A DNA stretch of 55,942 nucleotides from Peptococcaceae bacterium UBA3933 (GTDB lineage: Bacteria > Bacillota > Peptococcia > Peptococcales > BICA1-8): contig DGEF01000124.1 of assembly GCA_002385805.1 (NCBI GenBank), forward strand, positions 1-55,942, written 5' to 3'. The translations under genes and the position numbers were made by a program. Below, piece after piece: positions 5,635-45,986 of this stretch. Position 1 is the stretch's first letter; each line of letters opens with the position of its first letter. Under the pieces are notes generated by a model, which was given only the letters and a program-made list of their open reading frames with translations, had not been told where the DNA came from and searched no databases.

Positions 5635-7623
5635 ATGAAACCTATTTATAAAGAAAAATACCCCCATCTATTTCAACCAATGGTTGTCGGTAAAAACAAG
5701 GTAGTCTTTAAAAACAGGGCTTTAGTAGCACCAATTGGCTCCATAGCCACCGGTGGCGGTGAAGACAGTGACGGACGAATCAATATTTTTGGCATTAATC
5801 ATTGTATGGAATATATTCGCGGCGGGTTTGCTTCTATATGTCTTCCCATGGAGGTTCCCATTGACGGCGGTCATGAACATATGTTTAATGTAAACCCTAA
5901 GACATGTAACCAGATGAATTTTCATTTACTACAGCGTTCCGTTCATGCCCATAGAGGTTTGACCTTTGCTGAATTGCTCCATTGCGGTCCCTATGTTTAT
6001 GATCGATTTAAGAAAATAGCGGCCAGTGACTGCGTTGTCAGCGGTAAAAAAGTAAAAGCTGCTACCCGGGAGGACATGGAAGAAGTTTGCCAGCTTTTTG
6101 CTGAATATGCCACATGGGTTAGAGCTGCAAAATTTGACGGAATATTAATCCATATGGGTCACGGCTGGTTGTTTAGCTTTTTCTTATCTCCACTCACTAA
6201 CCATAGAACAGATGAGTTCGGAGGCAGCATAGAAAACCGTTGCCGTTTTCCCCTAATGGTAATTAAAGCTATCCGGGAAGCTGTCGGTGACGACCTGCTT
6301 ATTGAATTGCGTTTGAATGGCAGCGATGAAGTGCCGGGCGGCATAACACCGGAAGAATGCGCTCAACAGTGTTTGATTTTCCAAGATTACGTAGATATGA
6401 TCCACATCACCTGTGGCCATCGTTTGGATGCTATGTCAAGACCGAAAATGCATCCCAGTAATTTCTATCCATTTGCCCATAACGCTTACGCCAGTGAAAT
6501 TGTCAAAAACACACCGGGTATTAAAATCCCGATCGGAGTTGTAGGCGGAATCCATACTCCTGAAATAGCTGAAGAAATATTAGCCAAAGGCCAAGCTGAC
6601 TATGTACTGATGGCCCGGGCTGCAATGGCTGACCCGGAAATCATCAAAAAAGCAAGAGAACTTCGTGAAGATGATATCCGGCCCTGTTTACGTTGTAACT
6701 TCTGTATGGATCACGGCAGAAGACAAGCCTTGACCAAGGAACTACATTTACTAAGTTTGCCTAGTTACGATCGTCACTGCGCAGTAAACCCGCTGGCTTT
6801 TCAAAGTGCTTCCAAGAAACTGTTTCCACCAGCAGACCGTAAGAAAAAAGTTGCAGTAATTGGTGGCGGAATTGCCGGTATGCAAGCTGCTATAAGTTGT
6901 GCTGATCGAGGTCATTCCGTAGTACTTTACGAGAAAACTGACCGGCTTGGCGGGCAAACATTACTATCCGATGTAATGCCATTTAAGAAAGAATTGAAGC
7001 TCTTCCGTGAGTACTTAGAACGTCAAGTTAGGAAACGTGAAAATATTATTGTTATGATGAACACTTTAGCCACACCGGAAATGATTGAAGATTTGGATCC
7101 GGATGCAGTTATCGTAGCCGTAGGAGCAGAACAAATTGTTCCTAATATTCCGGGTGTAGAAAAAGCTATGATGGCTTTTGATGTGTTTGGAAATGAAGAC
7201 AAAGTAGGCAAAAAAGTCCTGATCGTCGGTGGCGGCAGCATAGGTGTTGAGCTGGGTATTCATCTGAGTATTTTAGGTCGTGATTGTACCATTATAGAAA
7301 TGGAACATTACATAGCACCAAATGCCCAGTTGACAGAAAGAATGTCTTATCTTGATTGGCTAGAGAAGAAAAATGTAAAAACAATGGTTGACACAAAATG
7401 CGTAGAAATCACTGATAAGGGTGCTTATGTGGAAACTCCGGAAGGTAAAAAGTTTATTGAAGCGGACACTGTAATAATTGCTGTAGGTACAAAACCTCTG
7501 GAAGGAGAACGGGATAAATTTATTGATACTGCCTTTGATGTTATTAATGTCGGCGACTGTTTAAAGGCCTCTAATATTGTAAATGCGATTCATACTGGCT
7601 TTGATGCAGGTTTAACATTGTAG
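5635..7623 (+). CDS. 2-enoate reductase / 2,4-dienoyl-CoA reductase-like flavoenzyme, tandem paralogue (copy 2)
   Basis: 662 aa and collinear with copy 1 over its whole length. Shared blocks include KEKYPHLF, DEFGGS.ENRCRFPLM, ELRLNGSDE, DIRPCLRCN.C.DHGRR, VIGGGIAGMQAA, DPDAVIVAVGA and FDVINVGDC. Confidence 0.85.
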   Translation: MKPIYKEKYPHLFQPMVVGKNKVVFKNRALVAPIGSIATGGGEDSDGRINIFGINHCMEYIRGGFASICLPMEVPIDGGHEHMFNVNPKTCNQMNFHLLQRSVHAHRGLTFAELLHCGPYVYDRFKKIAASDCVVSGKKVKAATREDMEEVCQLFAEYATWVRAAKFDGILIHMGHGWLFSFFLSPLTNHRTDEFGGSIENRCRFPLMVIKAIREAVGDDLLIELRLNGSDEVPGGITPEECAQQCLIFQDYVDMIHITCGHRLDAMSRPKMHPSNFYPFAHNAYASEIVKNTPGIKIPIGVVGGIHTPEIAEEILAKGQADYVLMARAAMADPEIIKKARELREDDIRPCLRCNFCMDHGRRQALTKELHLLSLPSYDRHCAVNPLAFQSASKKLFPPADRKKKVAVIGGGIAGMQAAISCADRGHSVVLYEKTDRLGGQTLLSDVMPFKKELKLFREYLERQVRKRENIIVMMNTLATPEMIEDLDPDAVIVAVGAEQIVPNIPGVEKAMMAFDVFGNEDKVGKKVLIVGGGSIGVELGIHLSILGRDCTIIEMEHYIAPNAQLTERMSYLDWLEKKNVKTMVDTKCVEITDKGAYVETPEGKKFIEADTVIIAVGTKPLEGERDKFIDTAFDVINVGDCLKASNIVNAIHTGFDAGLTL

Positions 7624-9476: not shown

Positions 9477-10694
9477 ATGAATATTACTTTAAAACGTTAT
9501 TTATATGTAGTTAATGGTTTTATTATCCTCTTGGTATTGGGCATAGGCTATGCCTGGTCGGTATTCGTTGGACCTCTGGAAAACCACTATGGCTGGGGAC
9601 GAGCCCAAACCTCCTTGGCATTTACAATTTTAATGATAAGCTTTGCTTTAGGCAACTTAATGACCGGCATATTGTCACGTAAAATTCCCCATAAAAGAAT
9701 TGTTCAGATCTCATCGGTGGCAATGGGTGGTGGGATGTTTTTAACTTCAATGGTAAGTAGCATTCAATTATTGTATTTTACATACAGCATTGCCGTTGGG
9801 TTATCTATTGGCATGGTTTATAATGCGGTTGTTTCAATTACTCCAAGATGGTTTCCGGAAAAGCAAGGTACTATTACCGGTGTTTTATTGATGGCCTATG
9901 CTTTATCGGCCAGTATTTTAGGACCTGTCTGTCAATTTATGTTGGCCCGGATAGGAGTACCTTTTACCTTTGTAACCTTAGCCATAATAGATTTCCTGGT
10001 TTTGTTTGTGGGCAGCTTTAACTTAGTAGCACCAACTACAAAGCAGAAAGAATTATTGCCGCAAGCAGCAGCACGTAAAAAAAATGAAGGAATAAAAACA
10101 GAAATAAATCACTGGCAAATGTTAAGAAGCAAAGAGTTTTATATCTATTTTATTTTAACGGTTTTTTTTATTAGTATAGCTTTAAGCTACCTTAATCATG
10201 TGGTACCGGCTTTGGAAAATGATTTATTGTTAAGTGCAGAAACGGCAGCCTTGGTAGTAAGTGCTATGAGTATTTCAAATGGATTGGCCCGTCCGGTTTT
10301 TGGTGTTTTCTACGATAAAACCGGTTTAACTTTAAGTCTCACTACCTTAAGTTTTATCTATATTTTTGCAACTTGGACCACATATTTTGGCCTGTGGAGT
10401 CGTACAACCAGTCTAATGATTATCGGAGCATGTGGAGTCTTGTTTGGTTTTGGTGGCCAAGGAGCCCTTATGCCGACTATTACTAGAAATCTTTTTGGGG
10501 AAAAAAACTTTTCGATGAATTTTTCTATTGTTAGCCTGGTAGGCATAGTTGGTTCAGTTGGCCCCAGCATTATTGGAATAATTCAAGCAGCCCACGGCAA
10601 CTATCAATTGGCCTATCTAATGCTGGCAATAGCTACGGTAATTCCTGCAATTTTAATACAATTACTGTTGTTTTTTATTAAGCGAAGAAAATAA
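9477..10694 (+). CDS. MFS transporter, oxalate:formate-antiporter (OFA)-like subfamily
   Basis: N-terminus GIGYAWSVFVGPLENHYGWGRAQTS is typical of OFA-type MFS proteins. About 12 TM helices. The track starts at TTG 9456, but ATG 9477 lies 6 nt after GGGAGG. Confidence 0.8.
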   Translation: MNITLKRYLYVVNGFIILLVLGIGYAWSVFVGPLENHYGWGRAQTSLAFTILMISFALGNLMTGILSRKIPHKRIVQISSVAMGGGMFLTSMVSSIQLLYFTYSIAVGLSIGMVYNAVVSITPRWFPEKQGTITGVLLMAYALSASILGPVCQFMLARIGVPFTFVTLAIIDFLVLFVGSFNLVAPTTKQKELLPQAAARKKNEGIKTEINHWQMLRSKEFYIYFILTVFFISIALSYLNHVVPALENDLLLSAETAALVVSAMSISNGLARPVFGVFYDKTGLTLSLTTLSFIYIFATWTTYFGLWSRTTSLMIIGACGVLFGFGGQGALMPTITRNLFGEKNFSMNFSIVSLVGIVGSVGPSIIGIIQAAHGNYQLAYLMLAIATVIPAILIQLLLFFIKRRK

Positions 10695-12921: not shown

Positions 12922-12937
12922 TGTTTCACCTACTTTA

Positions 12938-13477
12938 TTAGTGGCTAATGGTTAGTGGCTGGTGGCTAGTATCACGACCTTCTGTCGTTTTCCCTATACA
13001 GGCAATCTGCATGTCGGTGGGCGAGTGAGCGAGTGGGCGAGTCAAATACTTTTCATCGCGAAAGAGAAAAGCAACTAAAGCGAACCCCTCATTTTACGCA
13101 CCGTTATAAATGGGGATATTTTACTTGAGCGGCTATACGGAGAATCGGCTAAATAATCTTAGCGTAGCCGAAGTAATAAAAGCTGGCTGGACGATAGGAC
13201 GTCGTCCAGAGTGCGAATTGGGCCATGGACGGCCCATTGAGCACGGTCAGCTTTTATTCTCTAGCAAGCTTAGATTATTCCGATTCGGAGTTTTTAGCCT
13301 AGCGAAAGTAAATATTTCCATGACATTGACTCGCTCAATGACCCAAAAAAATCTCAGTAGCCGTCATACCGCCCCCAAATATTCGCCCAAAAGCCATAAT
13401 GCCGTCCCAAAAACTAAACCCCAAAGCTGTAATGCTGACATGCAGTATAGCTCATTAGACGTAATGCCATCCTAAAG
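12938..13477. repeat. composite word-array intergenic element, copy A
   Basis: In order on the + strand: a GTGGCTAGT-type array (12938-12970), a CACGACC unit (12971-12990) and a GGGCGAGT array (13017-13043). Then comes a roughly 210-nt imperfect inverted repeat (13110-13321), followed by four units with a 32-33-nt period and a TAATGC core (cores at 13364, 13397, 13430, 13462). Confidence 0.9.
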
Positions 13478-26154: not shown

Positions 26155-26177
26155 GTTTATTAACCTCCGGTTAATAT

Positions 26178-26478
26178 GTGGCTAGTTTTTAGTGGCTAGT
26201 GGCTAGATTTATGAACCACGGATAAACCTTGCAGAGTATCCCAAAATCAGTTACTGACCAAAGCATTAGCCCCAGAGACGTAATGCCGCCCCGAAAGCTA
26301 GGCCCGGAGGCCGTAATGCCGTCATGCAGGTTAGCTCGTGAGCAGTCATGCCGTCCCAAAATATTCGCCCAAAAGCCGTAATGCTTACATGCAATATATC
26401 TTAATTATATATGTTGCTGGGGGTAAGTTCCACCGGGAAAAAATTACTAAACCTTAACCTCTACTTTGACCTTATAGA
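26178..26478. repeat. composite word-array intergenic element, copy B
   Basis: In order: a GTGGCTAGT array (26178-26206) and ATTTATGAACCACGGATAAACC (26207-26228). Then four units with a 32-33-nt period (TAATGC/TCATGC cores at 26281, 26314, 26346, 26379), followed by AACCTTAACC words (26448-26478). Confidence 0.9.
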
Positions 26479-39242: not shown

Positions 39243-39260
39243 ACCTTCACCCCAAGATTT

Positions 39261-39380
39261 GTGGCTAGTTGATAGTGGCTAGTGGCTGAAATTATTAAAC
39301 CACGGATAAACACGGATGGACACACATAAACACGACCGAAGGTTGTAATACTAGCCACTAGCCTCTAGCCACTAACCACT
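39261..39380. repeat. composite word-array intergenic element, copy C (long hairpin)
   Basis: The left arm GTGGCTAGTTGATAGTGGCTAGTGGCT (39261-39287) is complementary to the right arm (39351-39379) at 23 of 27 positions. The loop carries 10-nt periodic CACGGATAAA-type units. Confidence 0.9.
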
Positions 39381-39392
39381 ATGTTTTATATC

Positions 39393-40745: not shown

Positions 40746-43388
40746 TTATTTTAGGCTGTCCAACCTGGTTAACAAGGCCTCTTTATTGGCCTGGTATTTA
40801 TTAAGTTTATCTTTTTCTTTATCAATTACTTCCTGGGGAGCCTTGGCCAAGAACCCTTGGTTACTTAATTTTTTCTCAAGCCTACTGATCTCCTGTTCCA
40901 TTTTATCTACTTCTTTTTCTAAACGGGCAATCTCTTTTTCAATATCAACTAGGCCTTTCAAAGGTAAAAATATTTCAATCCCCTGTACAACTGCGGTAAC
41001 CGCCTGTTGAGGTTTTTGGGCTAATTTTAATTCCAATTTCAAATTGCTGACAGTAGCCAGCTGCTTAATAAATCCTTCCCCATTACTAATAACCGTTAAA
41101 TAGTCCTCCCTGTTGGCTCCAATAATAATTTCCGCCTCTATACCCGGAGGAATATTCATTTCACTACGCAAGTTTCTAATAGCCCTGATGATTTCCATAA
41201 CTAAGGCCATTTCTTCCTCAATCTTCTTATCTACAAATTGCTCCTCAACCTGAGGCCAGGTTGTTAACATAATTGTTTGGCCTTCATGAGGCAGATGCTG
41301 CCAAATTTCCTCTGTAATAAAAGGCATAAAGGGATGTAACAATTCCATGGTTCCCCGTAAAACATTAGCCAGAACACTTTGGGCAGTAGCCTTGCTTACC
41401 TCATTTTCTTTACCGTATAGACGTGGTTTCACCAGTTCAATGTACCAATCACAAAACTCACTCCAGATAAAATCATAAAGCAATCGTGCAGCTTCCCCTA
41501 ACTCATACTTTTCTAAAAGTTTTGTTACTTGATCTACGGTAGAATTAAAACGACTTAAAATCCAGCGATCCGCTAGATTATACTGGGGAGCATATTTTCC
41601 TTCTTCATAATCTTTTAGATTCATTAAAACAAAGCGAGCTGCATTCCAAATCTTGTTGGCAAAATTACGGGTAGCTTCTAATCTTTCAAAATGAAATCTT
41701 AAGTCGTTCCCAGGGGTGTTACCGGTTATCAGCATAAACCTTAAAGTATCTGCTCCATACTCTTCAATTACCTCTAAAGGATCTACCCCATTACCCAAGG
41801 ACTTACTCATTTTTCGCCCTTGAGCATCCAGAACTAAACCGTGGATAAACACTTCTTTAAAAGGTATTTCCTCCATGGCATATAAAGCTGTAAAAATCAT
41901 CCTGGCTACCCAGAAGAAAATGATATCTCTTCCCGTCACCAACACACTGGTAGGATAATACTTGGCTAAATCCTTTGTCTGCTCCGGCCAGCCTAAAGTT
42001 GAAAAGGGCCATAAACCTGAACTAAACCAGGTATCTAAAACATCCGGATCCTGCTCTAAATTATGAGAGTTACATTTAGGACAAGTTGAAGGATTTTCTT
42101 TACTACAAATCACTTCCCCACAGTCCTGGCAGTACCAGACGGGTATCCTATGCCCCCACCATAACTGGCGAGAGATGCACCAGTCTCTAATGTTCTCCAT
42201 CCAGTCCAGATATATTTTGGTAAACCTTTCCGGAACAAAACGGGTTTTACCTTCTTTAACTACTTGAATAGCCGGTTGGGCTAAGGGCTTCATTCTTACA
42301 AACCATTGTTTAGAAACTAAAGGTTCGATAACTGTATCACAGCGGTAACAATGACCTACTGCATGATCATGGTCCGTTATTTTAACCAGGTAACCTTGCT
42401 TTTCCAAATCCTCAACAATTCTCTTACGGCATTCATATCTATCCAACCCTTGATAAGGTCCCGCATTTTCATTCATACGAGCATCTTTGCCCATTACAAC
42501 CACCTCAGGCAAGTTATGTCTTCTTGCCACCTCAAAATCATTAGGGTCATGGGCAGGTGTAATCTTAACGGCTCCGGTACCAAACTCTCTATCAACATAT
42601 TCATCGGCTATTACCGGAATCACTCTGTTGACAATGGGTAAAACAAGGTTGGTACCTATTAAATGAGCATAACGTTTATCTTCCGGATGAACTGCCACTG
42701 CTGTATCTCCCAGCATGGTTTCCGGTCGTGTAGTAGCTATTTCGATATAATCAGTGCCGTCTTCAGTAGGATAGCGCAAATGATACAGCTTGCCTTTTTC
42801 TTCGGCATGTTCTACCTCAATATCGGAAATGGTGGTCTGGCAATGAGGGCACCAGTTAATAATATAATTATCCTGATAGATCAAACCATCGTTATACAAG
42901 CGGACAAATATTTCTCTTACTGCCTTGGAACAACCTTCATCCATAGTAAAACGTTCCCGGTCCCAATCACAAGAGGTTCCCAGTTTTCTTAACTGTTGAG
43001 TAATCCGGTTACCGTACTGTTCTTTCCAGGCCCAGGCCCTTTCCAAAAACTTTTCCCGACCCAATTCATGCTTATTTGTTCCCTCTTCAGCTAATTGGGC
43101 TTCAACTTTGGCCTGGGTAGCTATCCCGGCATGGTCAGTACCGGGGAGCCATAAGGTATTATACCCCTGCATCCTCCGCCAGCGGGTCAAAATATCCTGT
43201 AAAGTATTGTCCAAAGCATGACCTAAATGTAAAGAACCGGTCACATTAGGGGGAGGCATAACAATGGAAAAATGAGGCTTGTCCTCATCCACATCGGCAT
43301 GGAAGAATTTATTATTTTCCCAATAAGTATACCATTTTTCCTCTACCTGCTTAGGATCATAAACTTTCGATAAGTTATTCTCAGTCAT
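40746..43388 (-). CDS. valS: valine--tRNA ligase
   Basis: HIGH-type motif (SLHLGHAL), KMSKS, and a C-terminal coiled coil. ATG 43388 lies after AAAGGAG; the track extension to 43439 runs into the T-box terminator. Confidence 0.95.
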
Positions 43389-43877
43389 TAACTTTTCTCC
43401 TTTCCAATTTGCTGACAATATTATAAAAGCCTCTCTCATCCCTAAGGACGAAAGAGGCTACTTCCGCGGTACCACCTTAATTTCACAATAAATGTGACTC
43501 TTTACAAGCTATAACGGGCTTTCCCGAAGAAACCTACTGAGTTAGTGACTAGTGACTGGTGACTAGTCACTAGTTGGTAGTGGCTAGATTTAGTGATTAG
43601 TGACTGGTGACTAGTAATGTCTTAGTCTTAACCTCAACCTTAACCTTACGACCGTAGGGAGTTTAAATCTCGCCCACTCGCCCACTGACATCTTGAGTGT
43701 CCCGTGAGTGTTAGACTCGCTCACTTCTTTTTCCGTTCAGTTTCCTGCCTCCGGGGCTACCTTCAGGTTGGAGCATCCAGGGAATTTTTCAGCCAAGAAT
43801 TCCCCTCTCTTTAGGAGCCGGAACAACCCTACTCCTCCCCTTCAACGGCTGTTATATTATAAATACACTTTCACATT
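43389..43877 (-). promoter_or_regulatory. T-box leader of valS, unusually long
   Basis: On the minus strand: the T-box sequence AATTAAGGTGGTACCGCG (core at 43476-43465) and a terminator stem (43459-43428) followed by a U-rich run. Stem I has an AGAGA element (about 43850-43730). There is a UUCG-capped stem III (about 43537-43518). Confidence 0.8.
43541..43726. repeat. composite word-array element, copy D, inside the valS T-box leader
   Basis: GTGACTAGT/GTGGCTAGT words include a 19-nt direct repeat TAGTGACTGGTGACTAGT[CA], present twice, and the 12-bp palindrome GTGACTAGTCAC. AACCTTAACC words lie at 43621-43650. CGCCCACTCGCCCAC and GACTCGCTCAC words lie at 43669-43724. Confidence 0.9.
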
Positions 43878-43883
43878 TTCTAT

Positions 43884-43911
43884 ATTATACAATGAAATTC
43901 ACCTCTGTCAA
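43884..43911 (-). promoter_or_regulatory. consensus sigma-A-type promoter for the valS leader
   Basis: On the minus strand: TTGACA (43911-43906), a 16-nt spacer, then TATAAT (43889-43884). Confidence 0.6.
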
Positions 43912-45583: not shown

Positions 45584-45986
45584 CTAGTGACTGGAATTAT
45601 GAACCACTAATGCACACAGATTAACACAGATAAACACTAATGGTTCGCCTAACGGCGAAAAATATTGATATCTTTTGAATGAGCATCTGCTTTAAAGCTC
45701 TTTATTAGGGATGCATCTGCTCACGGGTTAAAATTTAGGGATGCATCGTCTTTAAAGTAATCTTTCAGGATGCATCAAAAAATGAATCCTAAAAGCAGAT
45801 GCATCATGCAGCATAACCCTAAAGCAGATGCTCATATAGAATTGCAATAATTATTTTTTCGCTTACTCGCCACATGCCCACTACAAACTAGTCACTAGTC
45901 ACTAATCACTAAATCTAGCCACCAGCCACTAAAAACTAGCCACTAAACTATTTGTATTCATCCGTGTTTATCCGTGGTTAATAATT
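45582..45986. repeat. composite word-array element, copy E (about 400-nt imperfect palindrome between convergent genes)
   Basis: The terminal inverted repeat is AATTATGAACCAC (45595-45607) against GTGGTTAATAATT (45974-45986). An internal perfect 16-bp inverted repeat is ATGAGCATCTGCTTTA (45679-45694) against its complement (45820-45835). Five GCATC cores are spaced 29-30 nt apart. A GTGACTAGT/GTGGCTAGT array lies at 45887-45946. Confidence 0.9.

Follow-up and report, generated by a model that had tools for sequence, protein, structure and literature searches.

A valS T-box leader with a stem II apical loop expanded by short tandem word arrays in a Peptococcaceae bacterium

The DNA analysed here, a stretch of 55,942 nt from Peptococcaceae bacterium UBA3933 (contig DGEF01000124.1, positions 1 to 55,942; hereafter the window), carries a valS gene on its minus strand, and the leader of this gene is a T-box riboswitch with 194 extra nucleotides of short tandem word arrays in the apical loop of stem II. 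Coordinates without a locus label are window positions, and the insert-bearing leader is read on the minus strand throughout. The ribosome-binding site (RBS) GGAAAGGAG at 43405-43397 precedes an ATG at 43388, and RBS and coding sequence together span 43405-40746, stop included (880 aa; open reading frame and Pfam). ValS is intact, with the Pfam domains tRNA-synt_1, Anticodon_1 and Val_tRNA-synt_C, and its homologues in relatives are annotated as valine--tRNA ligase. The closest of these relatives, at 78-83% ValS identity, keep the gene order DUF3792 - valS - folC-like, and a T-box was found in all of the closest syntenic ones with either the Rfam model or R1, a model of the clade.

Transcription is predicted to start at about 43877, downstream of a sigma-70-type promoter at 43911-43884 that agrees with the consensus at 12/12 positions (TTGACA 43911-43906, a 16-nt spacer, TATAAT 43889-43884) and is kept in all six assemblies of the source species. 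An earlier reading made from the letters alone, here called the sequence-only reading, had named this promoter and a leader of about 490 nt, and both hold, the distance from the predicted start to the ATG being ~490 nt. The Rfam T-box model RF00230 matches 43854-43441 end to end, over model positions 1-219 of 219, with 107.8 bits against a curated gathering threshold of 93 and an E-value of 6.5e-23, which places the match far beyond chance; the full-length T-box leader RNA is thus 414 nt long, insert included. In the RF00230 alignment stem I occupies 43848-43748 and comprises the GA/K-turn region, a specifier loop (AGUA ... GAA), an AG bulge and the distal loop GGCUGAAA, with AGGAGUA at 43836-43830 and the AGAGA of the AG bulge at 43810-43806.

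The 3' side of the specifier loop reads GAA-G-GUA-G and then CCCC, a stretch that can be parsed in two ways, as GAA-GGU-A or as GAA-G-GUA-G. In T-boxes the order is codon, purine, helix, and as judged from the sequence it is GUA (Val, 43760-43758), followed by the purine G and the closing helix CCCC, that fits both this rule and the downstream valS gene. All seven clade leaders and the outgroup L214 have GUAG immediately 5' of the closing helix, the bases between GAA and GUA vary, and the specifier region of L091 is simply GAA-GUA-G; this invariance and the L091 sequence together exclude a GGU (Gly) specifier. The AGAGA element and the Val specifier of the sequence-only reading are both confirmed.

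Stem II begins at 43745 with its 5' strand GGAAACU (43745-43739), continues into the S-turn strand GAA (43738-43736) and a single C, and reaches the end of this segment at 43735. The 194-nt insertion follows at 43734-43541, its boundaries set by comparison with L092 and L214. Beyond it, 43540-43528 holds UC, the S-turn strand AGUA (43538-43535) and the stem II 3' strand GGUUUCU (43534-43528), the assignment of both flanks resting on the RF00230 alignment and on covariation. The element at 43526-43506 comprises the stem IIA hairpin CGG-GAAAGC-CCG (43526-43515), an F-box-like CCGUUA and GCUU (43509-43506), with which the loop AAGC may pair as the IIB pseudoknot, a prediction from the letters that carries no covariation. 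The basal helix, the GAA/AGUA S-turn strands and the IIA hairpin are thus all present. It had been proposed that extra RNA located after stem I and ahead of stem III took the place of stem II and the IIA/B pseudoknot; the extra RNA is real, but it replaces neither and sits inside the apical loop of stem II. What had been taken for a UUCG-capped stem III consists of the 3' strand of stem II and the stem IIA that it leads into, and stem III proper is UCACA-UUUAU-UGUGA at 43497-43483.

The antiterminator occupies 43478-43444 (AAGG / bulge UGGUACC / GCGGA ... UUCGU / CCUU), its 5' segment 43478-43465 being AAGGUGGUACCGCG, with the T-box sequence GGTGGTACCGCG at 43476-43465. A terminator search places an intrinsic terminator at 43459-43428, with a 14-bp stem, a 4-nt loop and then UUUUAUAAU; both of these elements lie where the sequence-only reading had put them. 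UUCGUCCUU is common to the terminator and to the antiterminator 3' strand, and since the terminator overlaps the antiterminator 3' half the two structures are mutually exclusive. The antiterminator bulge UGGU is complementary to a tRNA 3' ACCA with discriminator A73, which is the discriminator expected for tRNA-Val; no tRNA gene was found in the window, where tRNA-Val was looked for. By every criterion that can be computed, the window leader is a member of the T-box family.

In the apical loop of stem II, RF00230 provides for 5 nucleotides and leaves 195 nt unaligned, so that 43541-43726 is not aligned as a normal stem II, and measured against the minimal relative L092 the insert is the 194 nt of 43541-43734. 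In the sense direction its 5' part is an A-rich tract GGAAAAAGAA and a hairpin GUGAGCGAGUCUAACACUCAC, followed by a small hairpin, after which it reads (GUGGGCGA)x2, then hexamers of the AAGGUU type and heptamers of the UAGUCAC/UAGCCAC type, the heptamer section containing an 11-bp palindrome. A tandem-repeat search delimits these blocks as an octamer array (GTGGGCGA)x2 at 43685-43670, a hexamer array of 4 units (AAGGTT AAGGTT GAGGTT AAGACT) at 43647-43624, and heptamer arrays of the TAGTCAC/TAGCCAC type with about 10 units (period 7, 10.6 copies) at 43615-43545. The octamer word is also found at 13017-13040 and in L088 (5664, 12657), and the hexamer word makes up the bulk of the L088 and L089 stem II inserts and is present in L091. 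More generally, words of the insert recur in the window's intergenic DNA at 12937-13045, 26174-26225, 39257-39381 and 45870-45980, and at non-orthologous intergenic sites of relatives.

The best paralogue of the insert in the window is 36 nt at 97% (45887-45922), within 57 nt at 86% (45887-45943), and the other blastn matches against the window and the relatives are of 15-34 nt each. The segment had been called copy D of a dispersed element, a description that these short matches do not bear out; as a full copy of such an element the insert is ruled out by the same blastn comparison. It is a mosaic of 6-, 7- and 8-nt word arrays and not a copy of one discrete element. On the sense strand of the insert neither a terminator nor a promoter was found, and no promoter-like site lies downstream of it on that strand, which disposes of the concern that the true promoter might be there. 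On the antisense of the leader, at 43704-43724 (+), there is a terminator-like hairpin GTGAGTGTTAGACTCGCTCAC followed by TTCTTTTTCC, which in the sense direction is a harmless A-tract and then a hairpin. We note that the orientation of the insert may have been filtered by selection, as its 5'-end hairpin and T-tract would terminate only antisense transcription.

Tandem repeats do break assemblies, and one could suppose that a repeat-induced chimeric join had put unrelated repeat DNA into the leader, the more so as the contig of a BICA1-8 relative ends 359 nt upstream of valS. We find this hardly credible. The exact ValS protein was found on 16 contigs, and in 6/6 assemblies examined (from JGI, NCBI, ENA and Logan, and from biogas and other reactors) the leader is identical: across different samples and pipelines, all six share the same 612 nt ahead of valS, starting about 20 nt upstream of the -35 box. 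Six independent assemblies with one and the same leader do not share an assembly artefact, and the sequences that flank the insert complete a helix that co-varies between species. In one sample of the same species (L086, 5825-7213) a gene for a UPF0236-family transposase sits as an insertion about 20 nt upstream of the -35 box of valS, with promoter and leader intact. In the BICA1-8 relative itself (L213 1-359; Peptococcaceae BICA1-8, close to L089), the sequence up to the contig end lacks a T-box and is mostly unrelated to the L089 leader except for ~60 nt adjoining the RBS, which could reflect a further insertion or an assembly break at repeats.

To place the size of the leader, we compared it with 52 valS T-boxes from outside the clade, measured with model R1 in the 80 loci of a ValS scan of genome contigs (best identity 69%, the source species not being included). 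In these 52 the median length of the stem II domain is 27 nt and the longest is 88, and the whole T-box has a median of ~232 nt, with none above 311 nt. The corresponding values are ~218 and 414 nt for the window, ~191 and ~390 nt for L089, and ~308 and ~511 nt for L088. The three are clear size outliers, so large that R1 reports the two halves of each as separate hits, those of the window leader being 43744-43854 (5') and 43441-43599 (3'). Another site of lineage-specific expansion is seen in Pelotomaculum, where T-boxes of 300-311 nt (L003 9647-9957; L065 9658-9957) reach their length through an 86-94-nt stem III and have a minimal stem II.

Within the clade the stem II loop forms a graded series. 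Counted relative to the minimal form of L092, CUGAAAUAUUAGUAGG, the extra loop nucleotides number 2 in L092 (whose stem II cap is GAAAUAUUAGUA), 31 in L087, 51 in L090, 74 in L091, 167 in L089, 194 in the window and 284 in L088, and the outgroup L214 has a minimal loop. In a neighbour-joining tree of ValS, L092 and L214 branch at the clade's base, and L088 joins L089, apart from the window lineage. Given where the minimal-loop leaders fall in this distance tree, the minimal loop is probably ancestral, and the large expansions probably arose at least twice. The inserts are self-complementary, with a foldback architecture. Those of L088 and L089, which are homologous, are built as foldbacks that set (AAGGYT)n against (AACCTT)n, and they have similar ends that bear small hairpins (CTGGCATAGCCAG ... 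GTTGGCTTTGCCAAC) and, by eye, short YGTA repeats at the junctions; that of L090 is closed by a 10-nt inverted repeat. In Desulfonispora thiosulfatigenes (L215 2822-2952), where 146 nt separate DUF3792 and valS, a T-box can be detected only in its 3' half, with T-box sequence and terminator, and stem I seems missing, so that the locus is uninformative on stem II. A scan of metagenome contigs with GAAGGTAGCCCNKGAGG gave 120 stretches, every one of them a chance match that lacks a T-box sequence downstream.

What these leaders share is most apparent once the inserts are excised. With the T-box structure imposed on an alignment of the seven clade cores, at 80% mean column identity, 91.3% of the pair cells are standard pairs, a value reached by 0/500 shuffles, and nine pairs have changed on both sides, a number reached by 1/500; controls in which the structure was slid gave 37-65% paired cells. 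The helices of stem I (1-5) are 75-100% paired across the seven species, helix 7 of stem IIA is invariant, helix 8 of stem III is 94% paired, and helices 9 and 10 of the antiterminator are invariant. The best supported of all is helix 6, the basal helix of stem II that brackets the insertion site, with 98% paired cells and compensatory change at 4/7 pairs. Selection has, on this evidence, kept stem II closed whatever its load.

Predicted folding is compatible with such a closed stem. The insert alone folds at -52.2 kcal/mol with its ends paired to each other (AGUG/CACU). For the whole stem II domain, a fold constrained to form the basal helix, with the S-turn kept unpaired, has -59.2 kcal/mol as against -60.2 unconstrained, a cost of 1 kcal/mol, and the ensemble pair probability of the basal helix is ~0.62-0.65. 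As nearest-neighbour models do not score the S-turn, these values serve as a compatibility check only.

We suggest that the leader works as an ordinary valS T-box and that the insert is a tolerated appendage, and we hold this to be the likely state of affairs. The insert is best read as a lineage-specific, fast-evolving expansion segment, probably of nearly neutral effect. The sequence-only reading had offered three alternatives, namely a tolerated self-contained domain, an added regulatory layer and impaired regulation. A tolerated domain fits best, since the base of stem II is kept by compensatory change, the insert can fold on itself in a way that allows the basal helix, and its length differs from species to species; impairment is unlikely because the core motifs are unchanged, and the regulatory layer stays as an alternative, weighed below. 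By analogy with established T-boxes, uncharged tRNA-Val(UAC) would pair with the GUA specifier of stem I and, through its 3' ACCA, with the UGGU bulge of the antiterminator; this pairing would block the 14-bp terminator and let RNA polymerase continue into valS. The apical loop of stem II has been expanded by 194 nt of tandem word arrays, often foldbacks, of the kind common in the intergenic DNA of this Peptococcia-like bacterium from biogas reactors and its relatives. The point of insertion lies above the S-turn, the part of stem II that contacts the codon-anticodon duplex, and being distal to it the extra RNA would project away from the tRNA as a self-folding appendage. Tolerance would follow from the restored closure of the loop, from the lack of a sense-strand terminator, and from the fact that the basal helix, S-turn, IIA/B, stem III and discriminator-pairing elements are untouched. 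The ~200 nt of additional transcription between specifier and terminator could also lengthen the time window in which a tRNA is captured.

The S-turn in the middle of stem II is its functional element and latches the codon-anticodon duplex, and the same review remarks on peculiar insertions found in each of the domains of T-boxes (PMC7583486). In the met leader of Staphylococcus aureus a 150-nt insertion is compatible with T-box function, and it has been suggested there that the extra transcription time may help to position the tRNA (PMC7913692); a 42-nt insertion, stem Sa, is likewise compatible with function (PMC9177973).

Several observations weigh against a tolerated and inert appendage. 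The insert folds only modestly better than its shuffles (z = -1.82), 10/200 of which do as well. In the unconstrained minimum-energy fold the partner of the 3' strand GGUUUCUU is AAGAAGU, within the insert, and not GGAAACU, so that misfolding of stem II is possible in the model. The same insert is present in all six assemblies of the species, with no sign of ongoing copy-number drift within it. Finally, heptamer arrays that precede genes, in the window as in the relatives, mostly end 24-38 nt before the start codon, and this position, together with the strand bias described next, hints that the arrays may not be functionally inert.

That last point is the basis of a rather unlikely alternative, in which the insert adds a regulatory layer: the tandem words, above all the sense-strand (UAGYCAC)n arrays with a spacing like that of UAG-N4, would be sites for an oligomeric RNA-binding protein or targets of a double-strand RNase, and would co-control valS attenuation or the stability of the leader. 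Where flanking genes are co-directional, heptamer arrays are in the sense orientation 12 times and antisense once, the lone exception being the inverted partner of a sense array, and two more arrays turn sense once spurious open reading frame calls are corrected. Arrays of (TAGYCAC)n lie in minus-strand sense at 12955-12968, 26192-26205 and 39275-39288 of the window, and in relatives at L088 12858-12885, L089 12853-12866, L090 9913-9926, and L091 9959-9972 and 12665-12707; in L090 and L091 heptamer arrays are found between the T-box terminator and the valS RBS. Species that share only about 80% ValS identity, moreover, have these words at positions that are not orthologous. There are precedents in the TAACTGA heptamers upstream of start codons in Beggiatoaceae (PMC4679880) and in the long S. 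aureus met leader, which RNase III cuts (PMC7913692). Against this, the arrays of the orthologous stem II loop change in content and length from one species to the next, with none in L092 and L214, and such lack of conservation speaks against their being essential. The bias is weaker for hexamer arrays (10 to 5), octamers have no clear bias, the sample is small at ~8 independent sites, gene orientation is confounded with replication direction, and no candidate binding protein was identified. A more specific form of this idea is quite unlikely in our estimation: the sense-strand (UAGYCAC)n, in which UAG returns every 7 nt, would act in cis as RNA elements for a dedicated multimeric RNA-binding regulator of this Peptococcia-like lineage, and their capture by stem II would place valS under dual control together with tRNA-Val charging. 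If true, the leader would be a composite riboswitch that arose naturally when repeats invaded it.

A miniature inverted-repeat transposable element (MITE), carried into the leader by a single transposition, is an unlikely source of the insert, although parts of the data have that look. The 57-nt match at 45887-45943 is in inverted genomic orientation, the homologous inserts of L088 and L089 have similar hairpin ends and junction repeats, and an inverted repeat bounds the insert of L090. No site in the window or the relatives, however, matches more than ~57 of the 194 nt by blastn, word blocks differ in order and orientation between sites, and the window insert lacks clear terminal inverted repeats, junction repeats or a target duplication, the AAC on both sides being uninformative at 3 nt. 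Stepwise accretion and slippage of modules fits better than a single transposition. It is very unlikely, in turn, that the insert has disabled the riboswitch, with a stem II that cannot close co-transcriptionally, a valS that is constitutively terminated or read through, and a T-box in decay. The stem II 5' strand does have to wait ~200 nt for its partner, and the competing helix with AAGAAGU is slightly favoured in the unconstrained fold. The conserved T-box motifs are nevertheless all intact, the Rfam score is above threshold despite the gap penalty, and in species whose inserts measure 31-284 nt compensatory change has preserved the basal helix, an upkeep that would be unexpected if a stem II with an insert had no further use for it. 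valS itself is intact, and the terminator is strong, so that without a working antiterminator pathway the cell would probably be starved of valyl-tRNA synthetase.

Reportedly, heptamer arrays of the short tandem repeat (STRR) type lie inside the RNase P RNA gene of heterocyst-forming cyanobacteria, where they are said to lengthen a peripheral helix and spare the core. These would be the closest analogue in kind, genome-wide short tandem repeats in an essential structured RNA, and they are, to our knowledge, the only close precedent for repeat invasion of a structured RNA; the differences are that the host RNA is a ribozyme, the phylum another one and the words other words, and that the window mixes words of 6, 7 and 8 nt. 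Canonical class I T-boxes, which act on transcription (RF00230; for example the Bacillus subtilis tyrS and valS leaders) resemble the window leader in having all domains in order ahead of a cognate aminoacyl-tRNA synthetase gene, but the window far exceeds them in stem II domain and in total length. The TAACTGA repeats of Beggiatoaceae and cyanobacteria are intergenic heptamers with proposed regulatory roles, and window-type arrays likewise end tens of nucleotides before start codons; they differ in sequence and phylum, and none is reported inside a riboswitch (PMC4679880). The S. aureus metICFE-mdh met leader has its insertion in L I-III (PMC7913692), whereas that of the window is inside the apex of stem II, keeps the S-turn and consists of tandem-repeat DNA that differs between sister species. 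Stem Sa of the staphylococcal glyS leader is, like the window insert, a lineage-specific helix appended to a T-box, but it belongs to the antiterminator/terminator domain, is conserved and experimentally affects tRNA selectivity (PMC9177973), and the window insert is in stem II and is not conserved. What is new relative to the staphylococcal insertions is the position at the stem II apex, the origin in genome-wide tandem repeats, and the hypervariability between sister species. Literature searches on valS stem II variants and on MITEs inside T-boxes found no repeat-expanded T-box stem II.

Positions at which T-boxes tolerate large additions are known only from a few staphylococcal cases. The clade described here provides a natural insertion/deletion series of seven lengths at one site, with the flanking helix kept by compensatory change, and the series can be used to test how much RNA the stem II apex can carry, whether transcription delay tunes sensitivity, and how tandem repeats invade structured RNAs.

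The repeat system from which the insert appears to derive extends well beyond the leader. Word arrays that contain G+C occupy five intergenic sites in the 56 kb, with units of 6-8 nt and several word types. Per 22 kb, L088 and L089 have 15-18 tandem arrays of period 5-12, and L087 and L090-L092 have 1-8; most of the outgroup loci examined have 1-4, with 9 in Halonatronum L012. Full-text literature searches on related topics gave no description of an STRR-like repeat system in the source lineage, and such a system in an anaerobic Firmicutes lineage is apparently undescribed. In the spacer between the folC-like gene and the next gene (39257-39381) the arrays form a foldback, with a (TAAACACGGA)n decamer array between (GTGGCTA)n on one side and its reverse complement on the other, and the decamer word is also found at 45614-45637 and 45958-45980. 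The convergent intergenic region 45670-45830 holds another dispersed repeat, built on GATGCATC(TGCT) motifs, which recurs in L088 at 9720-9870, downstream of the valS terminator. A TwoAYGGAY RNA (RF01731, 57.2 bits) lies at 13135-13293 (+) between two minus-strand genes, and its flanks, 12937-13045 and 13359-13452, carry word arrays as well as 33/44-nt units (AGCCGTAATGCCGTCCCAAAA...). The 33/44-nt units are found again at 26276-26401, ahead of another gene, and a second TwoAYGGAY RNA is present in L092 at 7451-7614.

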